64,000 bases of DNA from Trueperaceae bacterium (GTDB lineage: Bacteria > Deinococcota > Deinococci > Deinococcales > Trueperaceae). Positions 43,746 to 57,753 of this stretch are shown piece after piece. A model generated the notes under the pieces. That model was not told where the DNA came from, did not search any database, and saw nothing but the letters and a program-made list of their open reading frames with translations. The stretch covers positions 3,264,001-3,328,000 of the forward strand of contig CBDCDZ010000004.1 of NCBI GenBank assembly GCA_965215565.1. The letters are read 5' to 3'. A program made the translations under genes and the position numbers. Within the stretch, counting starts at the first letter, position 1. Every line of letters starts with the position of its first letter.

Positions 43746-44621
43746 AGACCTCTTGCAAAAGTCATGAATCGAGGTTGGCGTTGATGAGCCCGGCGATGAG
43801 GTTGAAGCGTAAGGAGAAGCGCTTGCGCCTATTACGGTAAGTTTCTTTGAGGATACGCCAGATCTTGAGCGAACGAATCACATGTTCTACCGCGATGCGG
43901 AAGCGTCCTAGAGCGCGGTTGTGTTGTTTGGCTTCATCACTAAGCTCACCGCCCTTAGGCTTTTTGACGGGCAAGCAGGTCTGTGGATGACGCGTTGCTA
44001 AGCCTTGATAGCCGCTATCAGCGACGTACCAGACTTCAGGTTTACACCTAGGGGCTGTTTCTTTGAACAGCTTGTAGTCGTGCTTGGGACCTTTGGCGTG
44101 GGCTGTTGAAAGAATCCTCGTGTCACTTGCGTCTACCAGCACTTGACTCTTCAGCGTGTGGCGCTGCTTTTTTCCGCTAAAGTAACGTCGCTCCTTTTTT
44201 TGGGCTTCTCAATAGGCGTCTCGGTGACATCAATCAAGACGACAGTCCACTCAATCTCTTCCACCTCGCGCCTTTTAGGTAAGCTGAACTTGCCTGAAGC
44301 GATGAGTACGTCTTCAATCCGTGTGATGATCCGGTTCGCTGTGGACTCGTGCAGTCCGTAACTCGCCGCAATATGAAACTGCGTCCTGTATTCGCGCCAG
44401 TACGACAGCGCTAAGAGCAGTTTGTCCTCCAAGCTGAGTTTGCTTGTGCGTCCCGCCTTCTTCTTCTGCCGTTCAGCTTCTCCTAGAACGTCGAGCATCT
44501 GTTTGAACACACCAGGCTTGACGCCTGTCAAACGTCTGAACCCTTCTGGCGCTAGTCCTCTAATCTCTTCGTATCGCATAGCCTTACTTTGCAGCTATAT
44601 GTCTACTTTTGCAAGAGGTCT
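43746..44621 (-). mobile_element. IS5-family (ISL2/IS702-like) insertion sequence
   Basis: 17-bp perfect TIR AGACCTCTTGCAAAAGT; 3-bp target duplication AGT (43743-43745 and 44622-44624). Confidence 0.92.
43762..44579 (-). CDS. IS5-family DDE transposase, two ORFs joined by a -1 frameshift
   Basis: ORF1 HTH ...IDVTETPIEKPKK; A7G at 44184-44191; -1 frame YFSGKKQRHTLK...ADSGYQG...RIAVEHVIR. Confidence 0.88.
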
Positions 44622-47359: not shown

Positions 47360-48289
47360 ATGAACGACGTGGACGAAGCTGCGCTGCCGCAAGGACTCTC
47401 CCTTCGTAAAAAAGGGGAGAGCTTAGAGACGGTCTCCTCGAAAGCCATCGAGGTGCAGCTTCTGGCGGCGGGGCAGGGCGTAGAGATTCTTGAAGGAAAA
47501 TTGGGTAAGGGCAAGCGAATAACGCTCGTCCCTTCGGGTAAAGCGCTAGAGACATACTATATTTTGGAGGGACAGTTGCGTAGCGATAGCGATGCTGCCG
47601 CCAGGTCTATAGCTGTGGATGCGGGAGATTACCTCGTGACGGAGTCGCTAGCAGAATCTTACACCCTACTCGCGCAAACTGACGTTCGCTTTCTCTACTT
47701 CACCTCACAACCCACCTTTCACGAGATAAGCGAAGAGTTGGGCGATCTGATGCGGCTCGCCGTCGAAGTCGAAGTCAAGGACGGTTACACCGCCGAGCAT
47801 TGCAGGCGGTTACAGGTGCTCTCCTACGCGGCGGGACAGGAACTCGGCTTGGCGCAAGACAGGCTCTACCTTTTGGATTACGGCGCATATTTACACGATG
47901 TAGGCAAAGTCAAAGTGCCCGCCAACATCCTGCGCAAGCCCTCCACGCTGACCCAAGCGGAATGGGCGCTGATGAAAAAGCACCCTACGTTCGGGCGCGA
48001 ACTGCTCGAGAAAACCTACCTTAAAAGAGCCGGCGTCATCGTCGAACAGCATCACGAGCGTTTAGACGGAAGTGGCTACCCCCACGCACTCTCCGGGGAG
48101 GACGTCCTCATCGAGTCCTATATCGTCGCCGTCGCAGACGCCTACGACGCGATGACCACAGACCGCCCCTACCGCCGCGCCGCGCCGCCAGAGCAAGCGT
48201 TTATCGAACTTAGGAAATACGCCGGGATATACTACCCGAAAGAGGTCGTGCGCGCCTTTATTTCGGTTGTGATGAGAAAAGCGCTGTAA
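47360..48289 (+). CDS. cupin-domain + HD-GYP cyclic-di-GMP phosphodiesterase
   Basis: N-terminal ETYYILEGQL...AGDYL beta-barrel; HC.R, LHDVGK, HP, HHERLDGSGYP, ADAYDAMTTDRPYR. Confidence 0.9.
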   Translation: MNDVDEAALPQGLSLRKKGESLETVSSKAIEVQLLAAGQGVEILEGKLGKGKRITLVPSGKALETYYILEGQLRSDSDAAARSIAVDAGDYLVTESLAESYTLLAQTDVRFLYFTSQPTFHEISEELGDLMRLAVEVEVKDGYTAEHCRRLQVLSYAAGQELGLAQDRLYLLDYGAYLHDVGKVKVPANILRKPSTLTQAEWALMKKHPTFGRELLEKTYLKRAGVIVEQHHERLDGSGYPHALSGEDVLIESYIVAVADAYDAMTTDRPYRRAAPPEQAFIELRKYAGIYYPKEVVRAFISVVMRKAL

Positions 48290-48300
48290 TACCAAAGTGA

Positions 48301-48331
48301 TTTAAGGGTGTCACAAAGTGACAGCCTTAAA
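48301..48331. terminator. palindrome after the HD-GYP gene (terminator or operator)
   Basis: TTTAAGG.TGTCAC-AAA-GTGACA.CCTTAAA. Confidence 0.5.
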
Positions 48332-48772
48332 CGCTCTATGAGCGTAACTTCTAACGTCCTCACATTGTGACACCTCCTTTTCAGTCTGGTATAACACTAA
48401 CAATCTGCGAACACTCAACCAAAACAAACTGGACGCTGTTACGGTTCTGCGTGACGCTTCTCCACCCTCTGAGCGCTCGGGCGGTACGCCGAAGCGTAGA
48501 CTTTTTTGGTACTTGCGTACTCCCTCCTAACTATTGAAAGCGGTATTTCTATACGCTGACGCCGCACAGTTCAGCCGTAAAGTATGAGAACGCTTTTTAC
48601 GTTAATAACTTCATAAGGCCCGCTCCAATCGGATAAGAAGAATCTCACGCACTATTAAAAAAGCTTCTATGAGTTCTCAGTGTGCTCGATGTCACTCGGT
48701 TTCATCTTTGTGAAAAGTCCGCCACGGAGTATTTCAGTACCCATGATACGTTGTGTTTCGAGGTTGATAAGC

Positions 48773-48870
48773 CTCATCGGAAGCGACGACTTCTGTCCCG
48801 CAAGGAGCTTTGCTAAAGGCTCTTCTGGGCGCTTGGGACAGAAGAAGCTAGTAGCGCAACCGGCCGGGAC
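48773..48870 (+). ncRNA. c-di-GMP-II riboswitch aptamer
   Basis: CGGAAGC-GACGA-CTTCTGTCCC...TGGGCGCTT-GGGACAGAAG-AAGCTAGTAGCGCAACCGGCCG follows the class II layout (GGAA...GGGCRCUU...AGUAGYGCAACCGRCC) with pseudoknot GCGCT/AGCGC. Confidence 0.85.
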
Positions 48871-48935
48871 GCTCTTCCGGACAACTTGAAAAGCTTTGGA
48901 AAACCGGAGCACGCCATATCAGGGAGGATATGAAA

Positions 48936-49067
48936 ATGAAAAAGTCACTCATCAAAGCGTTGGTTCTTGCTCTTACTCTTACTGCGTTTGGTACAGTTTC
49001 GACAGCGAGCGCTGCCGAAGGTTCGGACAAGGCTCCGTCAGTTCAAAAGTTTAGAGTCAACTGCTAA
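48936..49067 (+). CDS. 43-aa secreted peptide precursor 1 (Phr-like architecture)
   Basis: GGGAGG RBS; MKKSLIKALVLALTLTAFGTVSTASA-AEGSDKAPSVQKFRVNC*. Confidence 0.85.
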   Translation: MKKSLIKALVLALTLTAFGTVSTASAAEGSDKAPSVQKFRVNC

Positions 49068-49087
49068 AGATTAAAAGTTCACCAACG

Positions 49088-49119
49088 AACTCCTCTACGA
49101 AGACGTAGAGGAGTTTTCT
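49088..49119 (+). terminator. terminator after peptide 1
   Basis: AACTCCTCTACG-AAGA-CGTAGAGGAGTT-TTCT. Confidence 0.8.
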
Positions 49120-49204
49120 CTTACCTCTTTTTTGCTGTGAAGTTTTCCACATTGTGGTTGACGCCCTGCAGACGAAATTTAGGGGTAAAAGAGAGAGGGT
49201 ACAC

Positions 49205-49330
49205 ATGAAGAAACTCACAAGCTTAACGCTCGTTTTGATGCTGGCTATCTGCGGTTTTTCTGTGGCGTCTGCGGGTGCTGCATCTTCAGACGGTGAGCCG
49301 TCAACTCAGAAGTACAGAGTCAACCGTTAA
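49205..49330 (+). CDS. 41-aa secreted peptide precursor 2 (paralog of precursor 1)
   Basis: GAGAGGG RBS; MKKLTSLTLVLMLAICGFSVASA-GAASSDGEPSTQKYRVNR*. Confidence 0.85.
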   Translation: MKKLTSLTLVLMLAICGFSVASAGAASSDGEPSTQKYRVNR

Positions 49331-49350
49331 GGCTGTAAGCAACATACTCG

Positions 49351-49383
49351 GGCGTCTCCGCGCAGAAGCGGAGGCGCTTTTTT
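49351..49383 (+). terminator. terminator after peptide 2
   Basis: GGCGTCTCCGC-GCAGAA-GCGGAGGCGCT-TTTTT. Confidence 0.85.
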
Positions 49384-49410: not shown

Positions 49411-49839
49411 CTAAAGGTCACGCGCCAAAAAGCGGATTGCCGCTTCGTAACCATGTACCCCTAGCCCTGCAATCGTACCCACACAGACCGCCGAGAGGTA
49501 GCTGTGATGCCTGAAGGCTTCCCTAGCGTAGACGTTGGAAATATGCACCTCGACGACGGGTACGTGAATACCGGAGACCGCGTCGCGTAGCGAGACGGAG
49601 GTGTGGGTTAGACCGCCGGGGTTGATGACGATACCTTTTGCGCCTTCATCCGCAGCCCCGTGAAGCCAGTCGATAAGCTGACCTTCGTAGTTGCTTTGGC
49701 GGCACTGCGCCTCTGTGCCCACCTCAACCGCCCAGCTTTCACACTGGGCTTCTAGGTCGCTAAGGGTTGCCTTGCCATATACGTCAGGCTCGCGTCTGCC
49801 CAAGAGGTTGAGGTTGGGACCGTTGAGGATCAAGATCAT
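49411..49839 (-). CDS. aroQ: type II 3-dehydroquinate dehydratase
   Basis: LNGPNLNLLG.REP..YG, QSN.EG, INPG, EVHISN..RE.FRH. Confidence 0.97.
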   Translation of the reverse strand: MILILNGPNLNLLGRREPDVYGKATLSDLEAQCESWAVEVGTEAQCRQSNYEGQLIDWLHGAADEGAKGIVINPGGLTHTSVSLRDAVSGIHVPVVEVHISNVYAREAFRHHSYLSAVCVGTIAGLGVHGYEAAIRFLARDL

Positions 49840-49842
49840 GGC

Positions 49843-50928
49843 TTACGCCGCCGCTTCTGAAGCAACCTCTTGCAGATAGCGCCAAGCACGCTCCAAGTGC
49901 TCATTCGAGACGTCGCTGACTAGGCGGGGATGGCTGGGGGACTCGAGCAACACCCAGCGCACCTTGTCCGCCTTTTTCTTATCGCGTTCAATGTAAGGAA
50001 GCAGTTCCTCCAAAGAGGTGGCGCTGAAAGGCGCAGGGGAGACCCAGCGCAAGAACGCGCGCGTCTCCTCCAAGCCGCCGTGCCAGCCGCGTAGCTCTGC
50101 GGTTTTAGCGGCGAAGAGGAGCCCATAAGAGACCGCGTCGCCGTGCGTGAGCCCGTGCTCAGAGTGCGCCTCTAAAGCGTGCGCTAAGGTGTGCCCCAGG
50201 TTGAGGTGCGCCCGCACGCCGCCCTCGCGCTCGTCTTGCGCCACGATATTCGCCTTGACCTGCACGGAGCGCCCGATGAGGTCCGCTAGAAAGTCGCTTG
50301 GTCCGTCCCTGTGAAAGGTATCTTTCGACATATCACCGAGGATGCTGGGGTCTGCTAGGAGTCCGTGCTTGAAAAGTTCGACTGCGCCCTGCTTAAATTC
50401 GCGTTCGGGCAGCGTTCGCAAGGTCTCCACATCTATGATGACCTCTTTCGGCTGCCAGAACGCGCCGACTAAGTTCTTGCCTTCCGGCAGATTGATGCCC
50501 GTCTTGCCACCTACGCTAGCGTCCACCATCGCCAAGAGGCTCGTCGGGCAGATGTAAAAGTCAATTCCGCGCATGAACGACGCGGCGACAAAACCCGCGA
50601 GGTCGCTTACGACGCCGCCGCCTAGCGCGAGGACGGCGCTCTGGCGAGTCAGACCGTCCCCTGCCATCTTGCTCAGAAGCTGTCCGAACGTAGTGATGGA
50701 CTTGCTCGCCTCGCCTGGCGGCACGACGTAGCGCTTGACCCTCTTGCCGCAACCTTCTAAACTATGCGCTACCTCTTCAGCGTAGAGGGGTGCGACGTTG
50801 GCGTCGCTGATGAGGGCGACGCTTTGCGCCTTGACGGATTCGGCGGCTTGACTCAATCCCCTGCCGATAGTGACAGGGTAGGAGGGACGCACTTCAACGT
50901 TGACGGTGGCTGCGACGTTACTTGCCAT
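49843..50928 (-). CDS. aroB: 3-dehydroquinate synthase
   Basis: GE.SK, LGGGVVSD, PTSLLAMVDASVGGKTGIN, LNLGHT.AHA.E. Confidence 0.96.
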   Translation of the reverse strand: MASNVAATVNVEVRPSYPVTIGRGLSQAAESVKAQSVALISDANVAPLYAEEVAHSLEGCGKRVKRYVVPPGEASKSITTFGQLLSKMAGDGLTRQSAVLALGGGVVSDLAGFVAASFMRGIDFYICPTSLLAMVDASVGGKTGINLPEGKNLVGAFWQPKEVIIDVETLRTLPEREFKQGAVELFKHGLLADPSILGDMSKDTFHRDGPSDFLADLIGRSVQVKANIVAQDEREGGVRAHLNLGHTLAHALEAHSEHGLTHGDAVSYGLLFAAKTAELRGWHGGLEETRAFLRWVSPAPFSATSLEELLPYIERDKKKADKVRWVLLESPSHPRLVSDVSNEHLERAWRYLQEVASEAAA

Positions 50929-51505
50929 AGCTACCACGTTGCGTGTGCGCCTCATGCGTCCAAAGCCTATTCACAATCTCCTCAATGACGTCTTCGGAGT
51001 GACGACCGTCGGTGGAGACTTGGAGCGAGCCCGCGTCGTCGTAGGCGGCTTGGCGGGCGCTCATCAGCTCGCGGATGCGCCCCTGAGGGTTGCCGATCTC
51101 CAGGAGGGGGCGTTTGTGGCGGCGCGTGCGCTTGTAGATGGTCTCGGGGCTCGCAGTGAGCACGATGACCGGACCCCGGCTTTTGAGCATCCGCCTGTTC
51201 TCAGCGCGCATGACGGTGCCGCCGCCCGTTGAGATGACGACGTCGTCTAAGCGCAAGCAGCGGCGCACGATTTCGGTCTCGTACTCGCGGAAGACTGCCT
51301 CGCCGTACAGCTCGAAGATGTCGGGAATGCGCATACAACTGACGCGCTCGATGACCCTGTCGGTGTCGATAAAGTTTAGGCTCAAGCGCCTCGAGAGCTC
51401 CCATCCGATGCGGCTCTTGCCCGTTCCCATAAAGCCTGCCAAGGCGATCCAGGTGGCGGGGCGCTCCAGCATATGAGGTCTTGACATAAGTGTTGCCGTC
51501 GACAT
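50918..51505 (-). CDS. aroK: shikimate kinase
   Basis: GFMGTGKS, IDTD, FREYE, STGGG, RPLL. Confidence 0.95.
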   Translation of the reverse strand: MSTATLMSRPHMLERPATWIALAGFMGTGKSRIGWELSRRLSLNFIDTDRVIERVSCMRIPDIFELYGEAVFREYETEIVRRCLRLDDVVISTGGGTVMRAENRRMLKSRGPVIVLTASPETIYKRTRRHKRPLLEIGNPQGRIRELMSARQAAYDDAGSLQVSTDGRHSEDVIEEIVNRLWTHEAHTQRGSYGK

Positions 51506-51512
51506 CGCGACG

Positions 51513-52667
51513 TCAAAACGCTTTTACGTAGTCGCGGTGCGCACGGGTGCGCTCGGTAATTTCACTCACCGTATCCGCGCCGAATTTCTCCATGAGCGCG
51601 TCCGCGAGCACGAGGGCGCTCATCGCTAAGAGAACGATAGAGGCGGCGGGCACGGCGGTCGTGTCCGAGCGCTCTCTAGCGGCGTCGGCTTTCTCGTGCG
51701 TGACGACGTCTACAGTGGGCAAGGGCTTCATCAGCGTGGCGATGGGCTTCATCGCGGCGCGTACGATGAGGTCTTCGCCGTTCGTGATGCCCGCCTCCAA
51801 GCCGCCTGAGCGGTTCGTCTTGCGCTCATAGCCGCCCTCTTCGCGGTAGATGGCGTCGTGAACCTGGCTACCGGGCACCGTCGCGTTGCGCCAGCCGTCA
51901 CCAATTTCGACACCCTTCATCGCCTGGATGCTCATGGCGGCTTGCGCCAAGCGCCCGTCCAGCTTGCGGTCCCACTGCGTGTGGCTGCCGAGCCCGACAG
52001 GAAGCCCCCTAAAACGCGCCTCGATAATGCCGCCTAACGTATCGCCATTTTTCTTGGCGTCGTCGATGCGGCGGATGACCTCTTCCTCCGCCGCTTTATC
52101 AAACGCGCGAATCGGGCTCTCATCGAGCGCGTCTAGGTTGTCCCAGTCCATGCCGCCGTCACAAGGAACACCCGCTAAGCTCACGACTCTCGCGCAGCCC
52201 TGTACGCCCGCTGTCTCCAGTAGGCGCAGCGCCACCGCGCCCGCCGCGACGCGGCTCGCCGTCTCGCGCGCAGAGGCGCGTTCTAAGACGTCGCGCAGGT
52301 CCTTATGACCGTACTTGATGCCACCTGCTAAGTCGGCGTGTCCAGGACGCGCCTCGGTGAGCGCCTTCTTGCGCGGCTCGTTGCCCGGCTCGGCGCTCAT
52401 GATCTCCTGCCAGTTGCGCCAGTCGCGGTTCTCGATCTGGAGCGAAAGGGGTGCGCCCGTGGTGCGTCCCGCGCGTACGCCAGCGAGAATTTTAACGCAG
52501 TCGCTCTCGATGACCATGCGCCTGCCGCGTCCGTACCCGCCCTGACGGCGGCGCAACCAAGGGTCGATGTGTTCGCCTGCGACGAGTTCCAAGCCAGCCG
52601 GTACGCCGTCTAGGAGGATAGAGAGGGCAGGTCCGTGTGATTCGCCTGCGGATAAAAACCTAATCAT
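51513..52667 (-). CDS. aroC: chorismate synthase
   Basis: AGESHG, RRQGGYGRG.RM, RPGHADL, ERASARET, MKPI.TL. Confidence 0.97.
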   Translation of the reverse strand: MIRFLSAGESHGPALSILLDGVPAGLELVAGEHIDPWLRRRQGGYGRGRRMVIESDCVKILAGVRAGRTTGAPLSLQIENRDWRNWQEIMSAEPGNEPRKKALTEARPGHADLAGGIKYGHKDLRDVLERASARETASRVAAGAVALRLLETAGVQGCARVVSLAGVPCDGGMDWDNLDALDESPIRAFDKAAEEEVIRRIDDAKKNGDTLGGIIEARFRGLPVGLGSHTQWDRKLDGRLAQAAMSIQAMKGVEIGDGWRNATVPGSQVHDAIYREEGGYERKTNRSGGLEAGITNGEDLIVRAAMKPIATLMKPLPTVDVVTHEKADAARERSDTTAVPAASIVLLAMSALVLADALMEKFGADTVSEITERTRAHRDYVKAF

Positions 52668-52783
52668 TTATATAGCCTAGCACGTTGCGGGTAGAGCCAG
52701 AAGAAAGCTCACCACTTAGGACCGCAGCGTTGGCTGAGCACGACGCGATGTGTAGAGGTTCACGTGGTGTAAGCGGATAATAG

Positions 52784-52810
52784 AAAACCCCCTCCGGCGA
52801 GGAGGGGGCG
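52784..52810 (-). terminator. terminator after pilQ
   Basis: CCCCCTCC-TCGCC-GGAGGGGG-TTTT on the minus strand. Confidence 0.75.
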
Positions 52811-52829
52811 AATGGAAATTATGGTTGGC

Positions 52830-54326
52830 TTACTCGAGCACGTCCGCCGTTACGATGAGGAGCAGCTCGCTGTTGGTCTCTTCCGTCGTGGTGGTGCTAA
52901 AGACGCTGCCGATGATAGGCAAGCTGCCGAGCAGCGGCACGCGCGAGACGGAGTCGCGCAACTCGTTTTGCAAAAGTCCGCCGAGCACGATAGTTTGACC
53001 GGGGTCGAGCGTCACCTGCGAATTGACGTTGCGCGTCGAGAGGTTGAGGAAGTTCGGGTTTTCCGACTCGGATACGACCGCCTCAACTTTGGCGTCTACG
53101 TTCAGAGTTACGCTGCCGTCGTTGGAAATCTGCGGACTCACTTCGATCTGTACGCCGTAAGGGATTTCGCGTTCGATGTTGGCGTCCACGCCGGGGATCG
53201 TAATGTAGATGGTGCCGCCCGACTGCAGCGTCGCCGTGCCGTTATTTTTCACGGTCAAGTTGCTGTCGTCCACGCGGCGGGCGAGCCCTTGTTGCTCCAG
53301 CGTGTCGAGCGTCGCGCCCAAGTTGAGACCCGTAATGGCTTTTTGCGCGTCGAACACGAAGCTGAGACCGGTGTCGAGTAGCGTGGTCGTGAATTTGCCG
53401 AGTTCGGCGCTCAAGTTGATGCCTAAGTCCTGCGCGGCGTTGCTGGTGATCTCTTGGATGCGTACCTGGACGTTGACCTGCTGCTGAGGCTGGTCGAGTT
53501 CGCTGATGATAGAGGCGATCTCACCTTGAACAGTCTCGGGTGCGGTGACGACGAGGCGGTTTGTACGGGTGTCTGCAGCGATGTTGATGTCGCTCGAACG
53601 AACAATCGTATTGGTCTGCGTGTCGGTGTTCTGGTTGCCTGCCGCGTCGAAGGAATTACCTTCCATCGTCACGGTCTCCTCTTCGTCGCCCACGACTGTC
53701 TCCTCGAGCACCTCTTTAAGCTCGTCGGCTTTGGCGTAGGAGAGCGCGTAGGCGCGCCTAACTGAGCGAGCCGCCTCAGGATCGAAGCGCCGTAATACAT
53801 CCGCGACGACCTCTTGTTGCGCTTCGGTGGCGCGCACCGAGAGAAGTCCGGTCTCGTCAAAGGCGCTGACGCTCACCTCGTCGCGCGGGGTGAACTGGCT
53901 GTCCAAGACGTCTTTGAGCTGGCTGGGCGTGTTGGTCACCGGATAGATGCGAACGACGACGGGCGCAGACGTTTGAGCGGGGCGCAAGCTCGCGAGCGAT
54001 TCAGGCGTGCCAACGACGACGATGTCGTTCTCCAAGAGCACGTAGTCGAGGTTGTTGAGCGTCAAAATGAGGCTCCACACCTGTCTAAAGGGCTTGGGCG
54101 TGCCGATGTCGTACGTGATGGTCTTGTCGGGTACGTCGTCCACGAGCGCGGTCAGCTCGACGGAGCGGGCAAGAGCGCTGATCATCATGCGCAGCGACTC
54201 GCCGCCGTTCGTCGTCTGAAATTCAACCGGCTGGTTGAACCGGCTGCTCTCCGGGAGAGGCGTCACCTGCGCGCTGGCTACCGAAAGCGCCAAGCCGAGG
54301 AGGAGGGTTAAGAGGATACGTTTCAT
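52830..54326 (-). CDS. pilQ: type IV pilus / competence secretin
   Basis: Signal peptide, N3-like domains (DTRTNRLVV), QVNVQVRIQE, VPLLGSLPIIG secretin motif. Confidence 0.9.
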   Translation of the reverse strand: MKRILLTLLLGLALSVASAQVTPLPESSRFNQPVEFQTTNGGESLRMMISALARSVELTALVDDVPDKTITYDIGTPKPFRQVWSLILTLNNLDYVLLENDIVVVGTPESLASLRPAQTSAPVVVRIYPVTNTPSQLKDVLDSQFTPRDEVSVSAFDETGLLSVRATEAQQEVVADVLRRFDPEAARSVRRAYALSYAKADELKEVLEETVVGDEEETVTMEGNSFDAAGNQNTDTQTNTIVRSSDINIAADTRTNRLVVTAPETVQGEIASIISELDQPQQQVNVQVRIQEITSNAAQDLGINLSAELGKFTTTLLDTGLSFVFDAQKAITGLNLGATLDTLEQQGLARRVDDSNLTVKNNGTATLQSGGTIYITIPGVDANIEREIPYGVQIEVSPQISNDGSVTLNVDAKVEAVVSESENPNFLNLSTRNVNSQVTLDPGQTIVLGGLLQNELRDSVSRVPLLGSLPIIGSVFSTTTTEETNSELLLIVTADVLE

Positions 54327-54328
54327 GA

Positions 54329-55279
54329 TCACCGCCTAAGAAGAATCAGGAGTAGAGAGTCGTCGTTTCGGGAGAGTTCGGCGCTCTGACCCGTGAGGTC
54401 AGTGAGCACGATGTCCGTATTGGGCAGCGTTTGCCCGAGGGGAACGAGAAAGGGGGCGGGCGCGTTCGCGGAGCGGAAGATGCCGACGCTGACCGGACCT
54501 AATACCGAGCCCGTGAAGGTGACTTGCTGGTCGCGCAAGTAAAGGCTGAGGTCGCTCGAGCCCGCTGCTAGAGGTAGGGAATTCGCTTCGTTCGCTTCGC
54601 CCTCGCTTTCAGCCACGAGTGGGTTCTGCGTCTTTTGTACGTTCGTCGGTGTGCTGATGGCGCTTCTTAACACATCGGGCGTGCTGGACAAGGTGCTCGT
54701 GGGCAATGAGCGCGGCAAACGTGTTTGACTTACCGCGCTCGTGCCAGGCGTACGCGCGCTAGGGATGGGCGCGCGGCGGCGTGGGGTGGGCGTCGGTGCA
54801 GTAGCTGTTTGAGGCTGCGGTTGCACGGGCACATCCGTGACTCTCTGCGTGTTTTGCTCGGGCGCAGGGTCTGCTTGCGCGACGACGAGCGGTGAGAAGG
54901 GGTTGACCGAGGCGCGTTGTCCGCTGCTCGCCTGTGTGAGGGGCATCTCGCTCTCTTCGACGTCTAACGTCGGCGCAGCTTCCGGTGCTGCCAGGGGCGC
55001 GGTCACGAGGAAGGGAAGCTCTGCCACCTGAAGTTCGCGGGCGATGCGCGGCTCGTTCGTCTCTTCCGCTTGCTCCTCCACTTGGCTCGCCTGCTGGTCC
55101 GCCTGCTCGGGTGCGAGAGGAGCGATTGCGCTCTCAGCCCTGTCGCGGTTGGGGACAGGTGTGCTGACCGCCGTCGGGGTGGACTCGCCCTGCTGCGTGG
55201 AAAAGTGCAGCACAGCGAAGCCGAGCCCTAACACGGCGAAGACGGCGACGAGGATGCGTGCTTCTTTAGATAAGGTCAC
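54329..55279 (-). CDS. Pro/Ala-rich pilus accessory protein (Thermus PilW position)
   Basis: N-terminal TM, LPFLVT and NPFSPL motifs, position between pilO and pilQ. Confidence 0.65.
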   Translation of the reverse strand: MTLSKEARILVAVFAVLGLGFAVLHFSTQQGESTPTAVSTPVPNRDRAESAIAPLAPEQADQQASQVEEQAEETNEPRIARELQVAELPFLVTAPLAAPEAAPTLDVEESEMPLTQASSGQRASVNPFSPLVVAQADPAPEQNTQRVTDVPVQPQPQTATAPTPTPRRRAPIPSARTPGTSAVSQTRLPRSLPTSTLSSTPDVLRSAISTPTNVQKTQNPLVAESEGEANEANSLPLAAGSSDLSLYLRDQQVTFTGSVLGPVSVGIFRSANAPAPFLVPLGQTLPNTDIVLTDLTGQSAELSRNDDSLLLILLRR

Positions 55280-55911
55280 CGTCTCACCTCCGCCCGGTCT
55301 AGCGAGCCACCTAGTTCGTCCACAGGTTCCACATCGTCACCTGTAAAGACGTAAACCGTGAAGTCGTACGTTGCGCTGAGCGGAGGATTCACCGAGTCTT
55401 GATCGTTGACCGAGAGACCGACTTGACGAATTTTCGTAAAGCGCTCGAGCGCCTCTAGCGTCTGCAAGAAGTCCACCGTTTCGACGTACGTGCCTTCCGT
55501 GCCCATGCTGAAGCCGAGCGGACGAACGCCCTGCACGTCTTCGCCGCGCGCGCCGTTACTCTGCAGCGTGTCGAAGGTAACGCCTGCGTCATTCGCCGCC
55601 GTTCTGAGTTGATCGAGCAGTTGCGCCACCTCATTTTCGCGGGGCAGTTGTGCTAAAAAGGCGCGTCTGTCCGCCTCTAACTGTGCTACGGCGGCGCGTA
55701 GTTGGGGTAGGTTGGCCCTAGCCGCTTCGCCGCGCTGAATCTGCGTTTCTAAGCGGCTGATCTCGCTCTCCAATTCGGTGATGCGCTCCTGCGTTGACGT
55801 GTAGGGGTAGAAGTACCAGAACGCGCCGATAAGTGCGGTGAGCACGACGACAGCGAGCGCGATGTCACGCTGGCGCAAGTTGCGCAGTTTGAAGTTTTTA
55901 AGGGCGTTCAC
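55276..55911 (-). CDS. pilO: type IV pilus assembly protein PilO
   Basis: TM + coiled coil, LP...EVAQLL, GTY....FL..LE...R. Confidence 0.88.
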   Translation of the reverse strand: MNALKNFKLRNLRQRDIALAVVVLTALIGAFWYFYPYTSTQERITELESEISRLETQIQRGEAARANLPQLRAAVAQLEADRRAFLAQLPRENEVAQLLDQLRTAANDAGVTFDTLQSNGARGEDVQGVRPLGFSMGTEGTYVETVDFLQTLEALERFTKIRQVGLSVNDQDSVNPPLSATYDFTVYVFTGDDVEPVDELGGSLDRAEVRR

Positions 55912-56573
55912 CGGATCACCTCCGCGCTCGTGTCGCCGTTGTCCTCGTCGCTTGACCCCTCTGGATCGGCTGCGCCGACGGTGAGGCTGAACGAGTAGAG
56001 GCTACTCTCGCTCTCCCTTGCCGCGTCTCTGAAGGACACTCCAAAGCGCGGTGAAGACTGAAGCTGCCGAATGTAATCCGCAAGAATCTCCGCGCTGCCC
56101 GCTGTGCCCTGAATGTCCATCTCGGCGACGACGGAGACGCCTTCGTACGTGCTGTCGCCCGCGAAGCGGTCCTGCGCGCCCTGATCGAGCGCCCGCATGT
56201 CGAGCTGGTTAAACGCGATGCGCGCGTCTAGGCTCCCGCCCTGCGCAGGCAACGTCTCCAACATGCTGAAAAGCTGCTCTGACCAAACGATGCGCCCTTC
56301 TCTGACCGCTCTGGCGATACCGACGAGCTCGTCCAGTTCGCGCTGACGCGCCCGCAGTTCGTTCTGCTCTTCGACGTAGGGGTGCAGCAGCTCGAGCCTC
56401 ACCTCGCGCTCCTCCTTCGTTTCGACGAGCTGCCGCTCGGTCTGCAAGGCGGAGAACTGAAGGATGCCAATCACGCCCAAAACGAGCACCGGGAACGCCA
56501 CGGCGATGAGCCGCCAGTAGCCCGGCTCGCGCCGCCGCTGTAAATTCTTAGGTAAGAGGTTGACGTTAATCAA
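55908..56573 (-). CDS. pilN: type IV pilus assembly protein PilN
   Basis: N-terminal INVNLLP motif, TM, coiled coil. Confidence 0.88.
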   Translation of the reverse strand: MINVNLLPKNLQRRREPGYWRLIAVAFPVLVLGVIGILQFSALQTERQLVETKEEREVRLELLHPYVEEQNELRARQRELDELVGIARAVREGRIVWSEQLFSMLETLPAQGGSLDARIAFNQLDMRALDQGAQDRFAGDSTYEGVSVVAEMDIQGTAGSAEILADYIRQLQSSPRFGVSFRDAARESESSLYSFSLTVGAADPEGSSDEDNGDTSAEVIR

Positions 56574-57753
56574 GACCCTCAACCCCTCTGAGCGCCAAGC
56601 CTATCGGTACGGCGAACTCGGGACCGACGCGGCGCAAGTAGTCCGCTTCGAACCGTCCGCCGCTCGTGTCCACCGTGAGCCAGGGGTCGCCTAACTCGAC
56701 GCGGAAGCCGAGCGCATCGCTGATCGCTTCGGGTAGCCCGCGCAGCTTCGCGCCACCACCCGTGATGAGCATCCGGTGGATGTCCGCGTCGCCCGCTTGA
56801 ACCCGGAAAAACTCCAAGCTGCGGCGAATCTCCGTGGTGAGTTCGACTAAGACGGGGCGGAGCGCTTCGTAGACACGCCCAGGGCTGTACTGCTCGCGTT
56901 TCGCGTCGAAGTTGAGGAGTTCCTCCTCGTCGTCGGTAGGAATCGTCGCGGTGCCGTAGTCCACTTTGATCTCTTCCGCCGAATCGAAGTCGAGCCCGAA
57001 CGCCCGCTGCAGAGCGGCCGTGAAGTCGTCGCCCGAGACGCCGATGTTGCGGTTCATCAGGACGCGCTGACCTCGTACGAGCGTAATGGTAGTACTCGAC
57101 GCCGCAATCTCCAACACGACGCCAATCTCTTCGGCTTCCGTGTAGAAGACGCCCGTGAGGTTCGTTTTATTGAGGTGCTCGCCCAAAAGTGCGCCTTTGA
57201 GTGAGCGCAGCAGCGAGAAGGGGCGCACGTCGACGATGATGGGCTCTAAACCCGCAAGCTTGAGGTACTCGACTTGCTGCGTGACCATGTCGAGCCGCGC
57301 CGCCGAGATAACCACCTCCAACTGCCCGTCGTCGTCGATGTCGGCGGGGTTGTCGAGCACGTAGTAGTCGAGCACAACCTCGTCGATGGGGTAGGGGATG
57401 TAGCGCTCCGCTTCCCACTTGATTGCCTCGTCCAACTCCTGCAAGGACATCTTGGGGACGTGGATATTGCGGGTGATCGCCAGCCGGTTGCTGACCGCCG
57501 CTACAACAAAACGTTTAGTGATGTTCGCCTCTTCGAATAGCGCCTTGATCTCGACGGCAAGACCTTCGGCGTCGAGCACCTGATCGTCTTGGATGAGACC
57601 GGGGGGCATCGGACGGATCGCCAGCGACTGGAGGACGGGAGGGGTACCGGCACGCAACTCAACAACCTTGAGAGCGCTGGTTCCAACCTCGAGCCCAACC
57701 GCTTCGATCCGTGGATTAAAGAGGCGCGAGACCGATTCGCGCAGTGAAGCCAT
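56566..57753 (-). CDS. pilM: type IV pilus assembly protein PilM
   Basis: GLEVG...LKVV, EAERYIPYP..EVVLDY, ITGGGAKL.GL, IGLALRG actin-like motifs. Confidence 0.95.
   Translation of the reverse strand: MASLRESVSRLFNPRIEAVGLEVGTSALKVVELRAGTPPVLQSLAIRPMPPGLIQDDQVLDAEGLAVEIKALFEEANITKRFVVAAVSNRLAITRNIHVPKMSLQELDEAIKWEAERYIPYPIDEVVLDYYVLDNPADIDDDGQLEVVISAARLDMVTQQVEYLKLAGLEPIIVDVRPFSLLRSLKGALLGEHLNKTNLTGVFYTEAEEIGVVLEIAASSTTITLVRGQRVLMNRNIGVSGDDFTAALQRAFGLDFDSAEEIKVDYGTATIPTDDEEELLNFDAKREQYSPGRVYEALRPVLVELTTEIRRSLEFFRVQAGDADIHRMLITGGGAKLRGLPEAISDALGFRVELGDPWLTVDTSGGRFEADYLRRVGPEFAVPIGLALRGVEGLD

Follow-up and report, generated by a model that had tools for sequence, protein, structure and literature searches.

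Why should a gene for a probable cyclic di-GMP (c-di-GMP) phosphodiesterase lie beside a c-di-GMP riboswitch and two genes for small secreted peptides? This question is raised by a module at positions 47360-49383 of a 64,000-nucleotide (nt) stretch of a Trueperaceae genome (Deinococcota; assembly GCA_965215565.1, contig CBDCDZ010000004.1, positions 3,264,001 to 3,328,000), hereafter the window, to which all coordinates refer unless a contig is named. A sequence-only reading had proposed here a peptide-pheromone and c-di-GMP signalling unit, made of an HD-GYP gene, a class II c-di-GMP aptamer and two peptide open reading frames (ORFs); all of these parts, with a hairpin for each peptide ORF, were found in place on the plus strand, and the interpretation as a whole is partly supported. 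The answer that we consider reasonably probable is that a pentapeptide is released from its precursor, re-imported and bound by the metal-free cupin domain of the enzyme, where it would gate the phosphodiesterase, with c-di-GMP repressing the precursor; we infer the binding, the processing and the sign of this regulation. The features of the module are as follows.

47360-48289, plus strand: cupin-HD-GYP protein, 309 amino acids (aa), cytoplasmic, probable c-di-GMP phosphodiesterase (Pfam, motifs, fold)
47393-47713, plus strand: N-terminal metal-free cupin, about residues 12-118, proposed peptide sensor (E42, E64 and G71 conserved)
48485-48498, plus strand: weak terminator-like hairpin 3' of the phosphodiesterase gene (8 such sites against 5.0 expected, weak alone)
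48744-48752, plus strand: extended -10-like promoter element (TG-n-TA-nnn-T) 5' of the aptamer (pattern match, same place in the same-genus loci L048 and L049)
48770-48873, plus strand: class II c-di-GMP riboswitch aptamer with a hairpin insert of about 20 nt in loop L3 (about 48802-48824)
48864-48935, plus strand: expression platform, predicted translational OFF switch, no U-tract terminator
48936-49067, plus strand: secreted peptide precursor 1, 43 aa (45 from the ATG at 48930), C-terminus FRVNC
49087-49116, plus strand: terminator-like hairpin 3' of peptide 1 (-20.3 kcal/mol)
49205-49330, plus strand: secreted peptide precursor 2, 41 aa, C-terminus YRVNR
49350-49379, plus strand: terminator hairpin common with the convergent aroQ end (-23.0 kcal/mol; 12 pairs and a T tract)

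A metal-free cupin fused to a probable phosphodiesterase

The 309-aa ORF starts at an ATG with a GGAGG-type site upstream, and its C-terminal part was matched by Pfam HD_5 (residues 140-292, E 2.8e-28). HD-GYP domains are defined by metal ligands (H, HD, H, HH, D) together with GYP and RxxR motifs, and all are present here, as H147, H179-D180, K183, H208, H231-H232-E233, G239-Y240-P241, D260 and R269 were found in the protein and are invariant in 43 homologues. An AlphaFold (AF2) model of the enzyme (predicted local distance difference test, pLDDT, 90.4) displayed a beta-barrel, a long helix (120-140) and the HD-GYP domain; its best structural matches were c-di-GMP phosphodiesterases, including PA4781 (4r8z; Z 23.8, root-mean-square deviation, rmsd, 2.6 over 192), and cupins (Z 10-12.5). 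The protein is therefore a probable c-di-GMP phosphodiesterase on the basis of its motifs and fold, and the c-di-GMP riboswitches found on the linked partner gene support c-di-GMP as the predicted substrate, although another cyclic dinucleotide may take its place.

The N-terminal domain had no Pfam match at cut-off, and Cupin_2 gave weak matches for 16 of the 31 members of the family, the best at 1.1e-5. Its modelled fold is nevertheless the double-stranded beta-helix barrel of the cupin superfamily, with matches to ectoine synthase (5ono; Z 12.5, rmsd 5.5 over 128) and to 1o4t (Z 10.9, rmsd 2.5 over 98), so that the cupin-like domain announced by the sequence-only reading is borne out by model and structure matches, as the HD-GYP domain is by Pfam. 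The metal site of cupins (HxH...E...H) is absent from it: the glutamate E64 alone is kept, and the 31 members and 150 aligned representatives share no conserved histidine. A role as a metal enzyme is thus unlikely for this domain. The cupin architecture belongs to no Pfam or NCBIfam family, and an Atlas search with the cupin returned nothing but leads under 0.9. That no TPR receptor lies nearby, as had been remarked, holds true, with no TPR match in the 309-aa protein and no TPR-sized ORF among the window neighbours; the evidence points to the adjacent cupin domain as the putative receptor, in which case the missing TPR protein would not be a gap.

Conserved linkage of the enzyme to a secreted partner

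The window genome holds five full-length paralogues of the enzyme, four with a partner. Downstream of the enzyme, one locus carries an aptamer and a peptide ending in FRVNR (L002), another a peptide with a doubled unit (L004), and a third a 105-aa lipoprotein ending in Asp-Pro-FRFSD (L003). Across the order, the cupin-HD domain was found in 36 of 363 genomes, all of one family (f1), with a profile count of 34/364 for the phylum; 33-35 of the 127 other genomes of the window's Deinococcota family hold the enzyme. A profile search recovered 265 representatives at E 0.001, Bacillota among them. In addition, a scan with a degenerate DNA pattern gave at least 120 matching stretches; the 80 examined belong to Bacillota, Thermotogota, Bipolaricaulota and Fraserbacteria, and about 47 of 150 representatives were matched in kind. 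The system is not peculiar to Deinococcota, and cognate pairs occur in named Bacillus, Paenibacillus and Clostridium species.

To score this linkage, a partner was defined as a signal-peptide ORF within 1 kb of the enzyme gene, either soluble and of at most 85 aa, or longer and ending in Asp-Pro, at loci flanked on each side by 600 nt or more (45/60, 71/80 and 40/80 loci qualified). A partner was detected at 31 of 44 cupin-HD-GYP loci of family f1 and at 37 of 42 from the other phyla. By contrast, none was found at 29 loci of cupins lacking an HD domain (XRE-cupin regulators, for example), and the non-cupin HD-GYP control, drawn from a metagenome scan (one family member and 79 generic HD-GYP loci, 40 with enough flank), gave 5/40, none of the Asp-Pro type. 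Since the detector had been tuned on the first two locus sets, it was tried on a later, held-out sample of Bacillota, where a hidden Markov model found the enzyme in 18 of 401 genomes (about 4%); 18 loci were examined, one was dropped for insufficient flank, and 15 of the 17 scorable loci had a partner. The linkage persists whether the partner is placed upstream, downstream, divergently or convergently. The check proposed by the sequence-only reading, conserved linkage in related genomes, was thus answered positively and far beyond the window genome.

Asp-Pro carriers, short precursors and a common pentapeptide

Partners take two forms: some are short peptides, which may contain tandem repeats, and the others are carriers of 93-255 aa ending in Asp-Pro plus usually five residues. 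The carrier is built from a signal peptide (some with a lipobox), a helical body, a beta-hairpin, the Asp-Pro and a short tail, and is the commonest precursor of the system. As the 61 carriers first listed had been chosen on Asp-Pro, which made the selection circular, carrier homologues were re-collected by profile. Asp-Pro was present in 96/96 of them and formed the sole invariant columns among residues 56-105; 87 of the 96 end exactly five residues after it. Among the tails, FRFNR and FRVSR resemble the window endings, and FTFSS also occurs. In Bacillota-type carriers, Asp-Pro lies within the last 22 residues in 38/38, with tails of five residues or more. Trueperaceae is the source label of one carrier homologue. 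In a model of the carrier (pLDDT 82.6), the tail lies outside the fold (pLDDT 56 vs 86-93). The fold was unmatched among 48,161 chains (best Z 3.0), and the carrier fell in no Pfam or NCBIfam family at cut-off, being represented by unnamed Atlas clusters only.

Short precursors keep only the unit, often in two to seven copies: PIHVGG-type units in Bipolaricaulota and Thermotogota, NPFRFS twice in L058, and GFKISN and GFTVTN twice. What the units have in common is a pentapeptide, since the position just before it can be P, K, I, A, L or G; the signal is most likely a pentapeptide of the form hydrophobic-x-hydrophobic-x-x after proline, here FRVNC and YRVNR, rather than the heptapeptides QKFRVNC and QKYRVNR put forward earlier. 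In a tree of the receptors, short precursors fall in clades of carriers with the same motif. For instance, the short-type L131 clades with the carrier loci L120, L147 and L162 of similar ending (support 99), the six rows of the window clade all end in [FY]RVN[RC] (support 98), and L058 holds both partner forms; the clades of PIHVGG-type short precursors and carriers join at support 91, which is not firm.

The two peptide ORFs of the window display signal-peptide features, called by a heuristic (basic N-terminus, hydrophobic core, small-x-small site) and not by SignalP, and, as had been described, related C-termini and a strong hairpin 3' of each. For peptide 1, the second ATG (48936) is the probable start, because the first lies only 1 nt from the Shine-Dalgarno (SD) sequence. 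Compared with a same-genus genome, both ORFs showed an excess of synonymous codon changes (8 synonymous to 3 non-synonymous for peptide 1, 11 to 6 for peptide 2). At the orthologous loci L048 and L049, hairpins of changed sequence stand at the place matching 49087-49116, and synteny with aroQ is kept as far as checked. The paralogous peptides swap F/Y and R/C between genomes, both ending in R in L048, both in C in L049 and one each in the window, which suggests gene conversion or tolerated variation. A CRP-like box (49136-49151) between the two ORFs was discarded as not above chance (2 matches vs 0.81 expected, 19/100 shuffles).

Receptor variants were also observed. L088 and L089 encode TPR-GGDEF-cupin-HD-GYP fusions of about 960 aa that retain the carrier, and these two, with P0021-P0023 and P0046, make up a set of variants that includes double-cupin forms.

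Riboswitches before the partner genes

The window aptamer scored 43.5 bits with RF03169 (cut-off 40) and 43.8 bits (E 1.4e-7) with RF01786, whose cut-off of 53.5 it does not reach because of the hairpin inserted in loop L3; insert-free orthologous aptamers attain 57-69 bits. The label of GAG variant riboswitch (RF03169) was not adopted, as the scores tie and the orthologues score as RF01786. The class II assignment of the sequence-only reading stands. Over 11 orthologous aptamers, the named helices were 93.4% paired, against 32-41% for slid controls, although the structure was named from the window copy, which biases the paired fraction upward, and two rows were partly misaligned or cut. Two-sided changes were seen in 8 of 19 helix pairs, so that P1-P3 and the L3 pseudoknot are recovered with covariation as in RF01786, the pseudoknot pairs themselves barely varying across the 11 copies.

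The L3 inserts of the window clade measure 20 to about 70 nt, and the longer ones of L048 and L002 hold a piece of a dispersed genome repeat, which ruled out the insert motif as a second RNA element. This intergenic repeat (about 100-150 nt, with an internal inverted repeat and a 17-mer found 314 times in the genome at up to one mismatch) had no Rfam match and also lies 3' of three other c-di-GMP-II aptamers.

At the 3' end of the aptamer, a hairpin at 48864-48880 that overlaps the 3' strand of P1 competes with P1 and contains an anti-SD, followed by a spacer hairpin and the SD (48922-48928). When the 3' strand of P1 was blocked, modelled SD accessibility was lower in 7 of 11 loci, the same in three and higher in one, giving weak support to a translational OFF switch. 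As peptide 2 lies behind the first hairpin, its control by the riboswitch is doubtful, and the riboswitch can plausibly control peptide 1 only.

Beyond the window, class II aptamers precede short peptides at 10 of 37 f1 loci scanned (six over cut-off, two under, two by alignment), and none was found before f1 carriers in the same loci. Outside Deinococcota, class I aptamers stand 11-181 nt 5' of the partner, as first gene, at 14 of 56 loci scanned, and this placement holds for upstream, downstream or convergent partners. At L140 and L164, the 3' strand of the aptamer pairs in the minimum-energy fold, read by eye, with the 5' arm of a terminator-like hairpin, an anatomy that suggests an OFF switch in these modelled structures. 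Riboswitches tie the partner to c-di-GMP, and the presence of two unrelated aptamer classes before it argues that the feedback was recruited twice. The proposed c-di-GMP control thus recurs across the family with two riboswitch classes, and in the window itself it is plausible for peptide 1 only.

Other riboswitches were noted around these loci. L140 (3813-3904) and L164 (3825-3914) carry a second class I c-di-GMP riboswitch, with the receptor upstream and a 208-aa membrane-like protein next. c-di-GMP-II aptamers are frequent in the window's Deinococcota family, with 114 of 128 genomes over cut-off. In the window genome, three of them (L011, L012 and L014; G000:C4:2483145-2484498), two in tandem, lie 5' of a 175-aa exported protein and related genes, and another (L013/L003; G000:C4:3828000-3834000) precedes a 749-aa lipoprotein with BACON domains and an HExxH-like motif. 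Encoded directly upstream of the L003 receptor-carrier pair, this lipoprotein is a possible processing protease.

Proposed mechanism and alternative explanations

In the mechanism that we favour, the precursor would be exported by Sec, as its signal peptide implies, and the pentapeptide released outside the cytoplasm, by trimming from short precursors and by cleavage at the invariant Asp-Pro from carriers. It would return through an Opp-type transporter, with which the six SBP_bac_5 genes of the window genome are compatible, and bind the cupin, gating c-di-GMP hydrolysis through the linker helix; at high c-di-GMP, the riboswitch is modelled to lower precursor output. Activation of the enzyme by the peptide is slightly favoured over inhibition. 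The former would give a positive-feedback switch into a low-c-di-GMP state, the latter a homeostat raising c-di-GMP at high density. A more specific proposal, which we regard as tentative, holds that the exported and sometimes lipid-anchored carrier undergoes self-cleavage at its Asp-Pro bond, which is sensitive to acid and heat, and so frees the pentapeptide for the cupin-gated phosphodiesterase. These pairs would then form a cross-phylum class without homology to RRNPP or two-component pheromone systems, in which short multi-copy precursors like those of the window arose by repeated loss of the carrier and class I and II riboswitches were recruited separately.

Several observations weigh against a peptide-gated cupin. 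Acidic residues like E42 and E64 also occur in XRE-cupin regulators without a peptide neighbour, so they are no proof of a peptide site. Once lineage is considered, no residue of the receptor was seen to change with one of the peptide; covariation at residue level, computed on the 60 of 74 cupin-pentapeptide pairs left after thinning at 75% identity, was rejected as evidence, its high scores following the split between Deinococcota and other phyla. The receptor tree itself is a quick one, of 74 hand-picked rows, and the short partners in L062 and L103 are off-motif. Thirteen of the 44 f1 loci lack a partner by the detector, whose tuning on two of the sets has been mentioned, and related genomes are not independent. 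The paralogue at L005 has no comparable partner (a 38-aa signal-peptide ORF 3 kb upstream is off-motif), and no partner was found within 16 kb windows around four orphan receptors. Finally, the modelled OFF shift of the window is small (SD accessibility 0.71 to 0.58), and the L049 aptamer appears decayed.

In an alternative of limited but real probability, the partner is an output of c-di-GMP signalling with an external or other target, such as a membrane kinase, and the ligand of the cupin is c-di-GMP or a small molecule such as an amine or amino acid, enzyme and partner being linked through a shared pathway. The riboswitches would account for this linkage to a c-di-GMP enzyme without any contact between the two products, and orphan receptors occur. 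The cupin also resembles the small-molecule sensors of XRE-cupins, a cupin is given as the c-di-GMP-binding domain of CuxR (PMC10519070), and riboswitch-controlled small proteins are outputs in C. difficile (PMC13724677). However, the partner tracks the cupin-bearing enzyme and not HD-GYP enzymes generally (0/40 Asp-Pro carriers), most partners keep the linkage without a riboswitch, the peptide motif class tracks the receptor clade, and the ORF lists examined show no further gene recurring from locus to locus. A gating peptide remains our preferred explanation.

Two further alternatives appear much less probable. One accepts peptide gating in the family and supposes that the window riboswitch has lost function, and the feedback with it, through its repeat-derived insert. 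It could invoke the score below the RF01786 cut-off, the inserts found in the clade (20 to about 70 nt) and the decay in L049, but the P1 core, P2, P3 and pseudoknot of the window are fully paired and the insert is a closed L3 hairpin, trimmed while the core was kept, which makes this unlikely. Still more improbable is that the cupin-HD protein modifies the secreted ORF as its substrate, in the manner of enzymes for ribosomally synthesised and post-translationally modified peptides (RiPPs). Repeated precursor cores and the adjacency of enzyme and precursor are reminiscent of such pathways, and peptide 1 weakly matched an NCBIfam RiPP peptide model (E 0.014, residues 1-22 only); this match, however, spans only the signal peptide, the cupin has no metal histidines, the HD domain retains GYP and RxxR and best matches c-di-GMP phosphodiesterase structures, the family enzymes are fused to the signalling domains GGDEF, GAF and TPR, and it is c-di-GMP riboswitches that precede the partner.

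Relation to known systems

As in the sensor-fused HD-GYP enzymes PA4781 (4r8z), PmGH (4mcw) and DvhD (9rbz), the catalytic motifs lie behind an N-terminal sensor and a long helix (120-140). The sensors of these three enzymes, which we take to be REC, GAF or PAS domains, differ from the metal-free cupin found here, which is genetically tied to an exported peptide. DP-EP/SO1698 and the FrpC self-processing module are precedents for Asp-Pro self-cleavage and share with the carrier an invariant Asp-Pro in an exported protein; the carrier itself matched no family by sequence and no solved chain by fold, and its self-cleavage is a hypothesis. With the usual RF01786 riboswitches, the window aptamer shares P1-P2-P3, the pseudoknot and the conserved 3' sequence, and it departs from them by its L3 hairpin insert and by its predicted control of a peptide precursor beside the enzyme that would remove its ligand.

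The closest analogy is with Rap-Phr, in which a pre-peptide is matured to a penta- or hexapeptide and re-imported through Opp, with gene and intragenic duplications (PMC5199041). Here too, a receptor gene adjoins a short signal-peptide precursor (by the heuristic call), as in RRNPP systems, several paralogous pairs coexist in a genome, the gene or an internal unit is duplicated, Opp-type importers are present and the predicted signal is a pentapeptide. Unlike in Rap-Phr, a cupin is the candidate for the sensor and a probable c-di-GMP phosphodiesterase provides the output, the feedback passes through riboswitches, and the commonest precursor is a folded carrier of 93-255 aa, sometimes a lipoprotein, with an invariant Asp-Pro; as there is no TPR receptor, the module does not count as an RRNPP system. 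The CD1980.2 family of C. difficile likewise consists of small proteins repressed by c-di-GMP via riboswitches, but these are 58-aa membrane-associated proteins, from cell extracts, under class I switches, and the part of that paper considered (PMC13724677) describes no adjacent phosphodiesterase or processed C-terminal motif. XRE-cupin regulators (HTH_3 and Cupin_2) have a related cupin sensor domain (hhalign 85.7%); they are transcription factors, as is CuxR (PMC10519070), and the XRE-cupins examined keep the motif histidine that is absent from the window family.

The pairing of enzyme and peptide was not found described in the open-access literature, subscription papers being mostly outside this coverage; PMC13157175, in the part considered, names cupin and HD-GYP separately and was set aside as not relevant. 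What looks new are the molecular parts, namely the receptor fold, the output, the carrier and the riboswitch feedback, whereas the logic would be analogous to that of Rap-Phr, and the claim depends on the predicted binding.

Other peptide and HD-GYP arrangements and genomic surroundings

A second, RRNPP-like peptide and HD-GYP system is present in the window genome (L311; G000:C4:1211500-1217500), where genes for a TPR-HD-GYP protein (676 aa) and an S8 subtilase adjoin a 42-aa signal-peptide ORF; the subtilase frame has four copies of GRSNVWAG, and the 42-aa ORF ends in the same motif. In the metagenome, ten loci (L237, L239, L244, L245, L246, L249, L250, L252, L256 and L265) have a membrane-type HD-GYP gene followed by a signal-peptide ORF of 59-68 aa with a GVSWE-type ending, and in three of them (L239, L244, L256) an upstream 490-aa exported protein ends in GVSWE-type unit repeats. 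Loci of this type provided 4 of the 5 partner matches in the non-cupin HD-GYP control. L085 and L103 have upstream signal-peptide ORFs of 39-43 aa with a TPxHA-type ending, behind a regulator-like gene, and probably represent another system. Small signal-peptide ORFs (32-59 aa) also occur at 971776, 1422816, 1578198 and 2808488 of G000:C4, one of them near a large regulator-like gene.

Around the module, a gene run on the minus strand (49411-57753) ends convergently with aroQ at its end; we take it to comprise pilM-Q-like genes and aroC-K-B-Q, the names other than aroQ being assigned from motifs. On the other side, a pair of minus-strand ORFs (43762-44579) resembles a split transposase.

Implications

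The locus adds a Deinococcota branch to these enzyme-peptide pairs, an Asp-Pro-plus-five rule linking carriers to short peptides, and a feedback through two classes of riboswitch. With a predicted ligand of five residues, a soluble receptor of 300 aa and pairs in named species, the central claim is cheap to test. If true, it would reveal a direct peptide input into c-di-GMP turnover, with the cupin as a new peptide-receptor fold and the Asp-Pro carrier as a new type of precursor.

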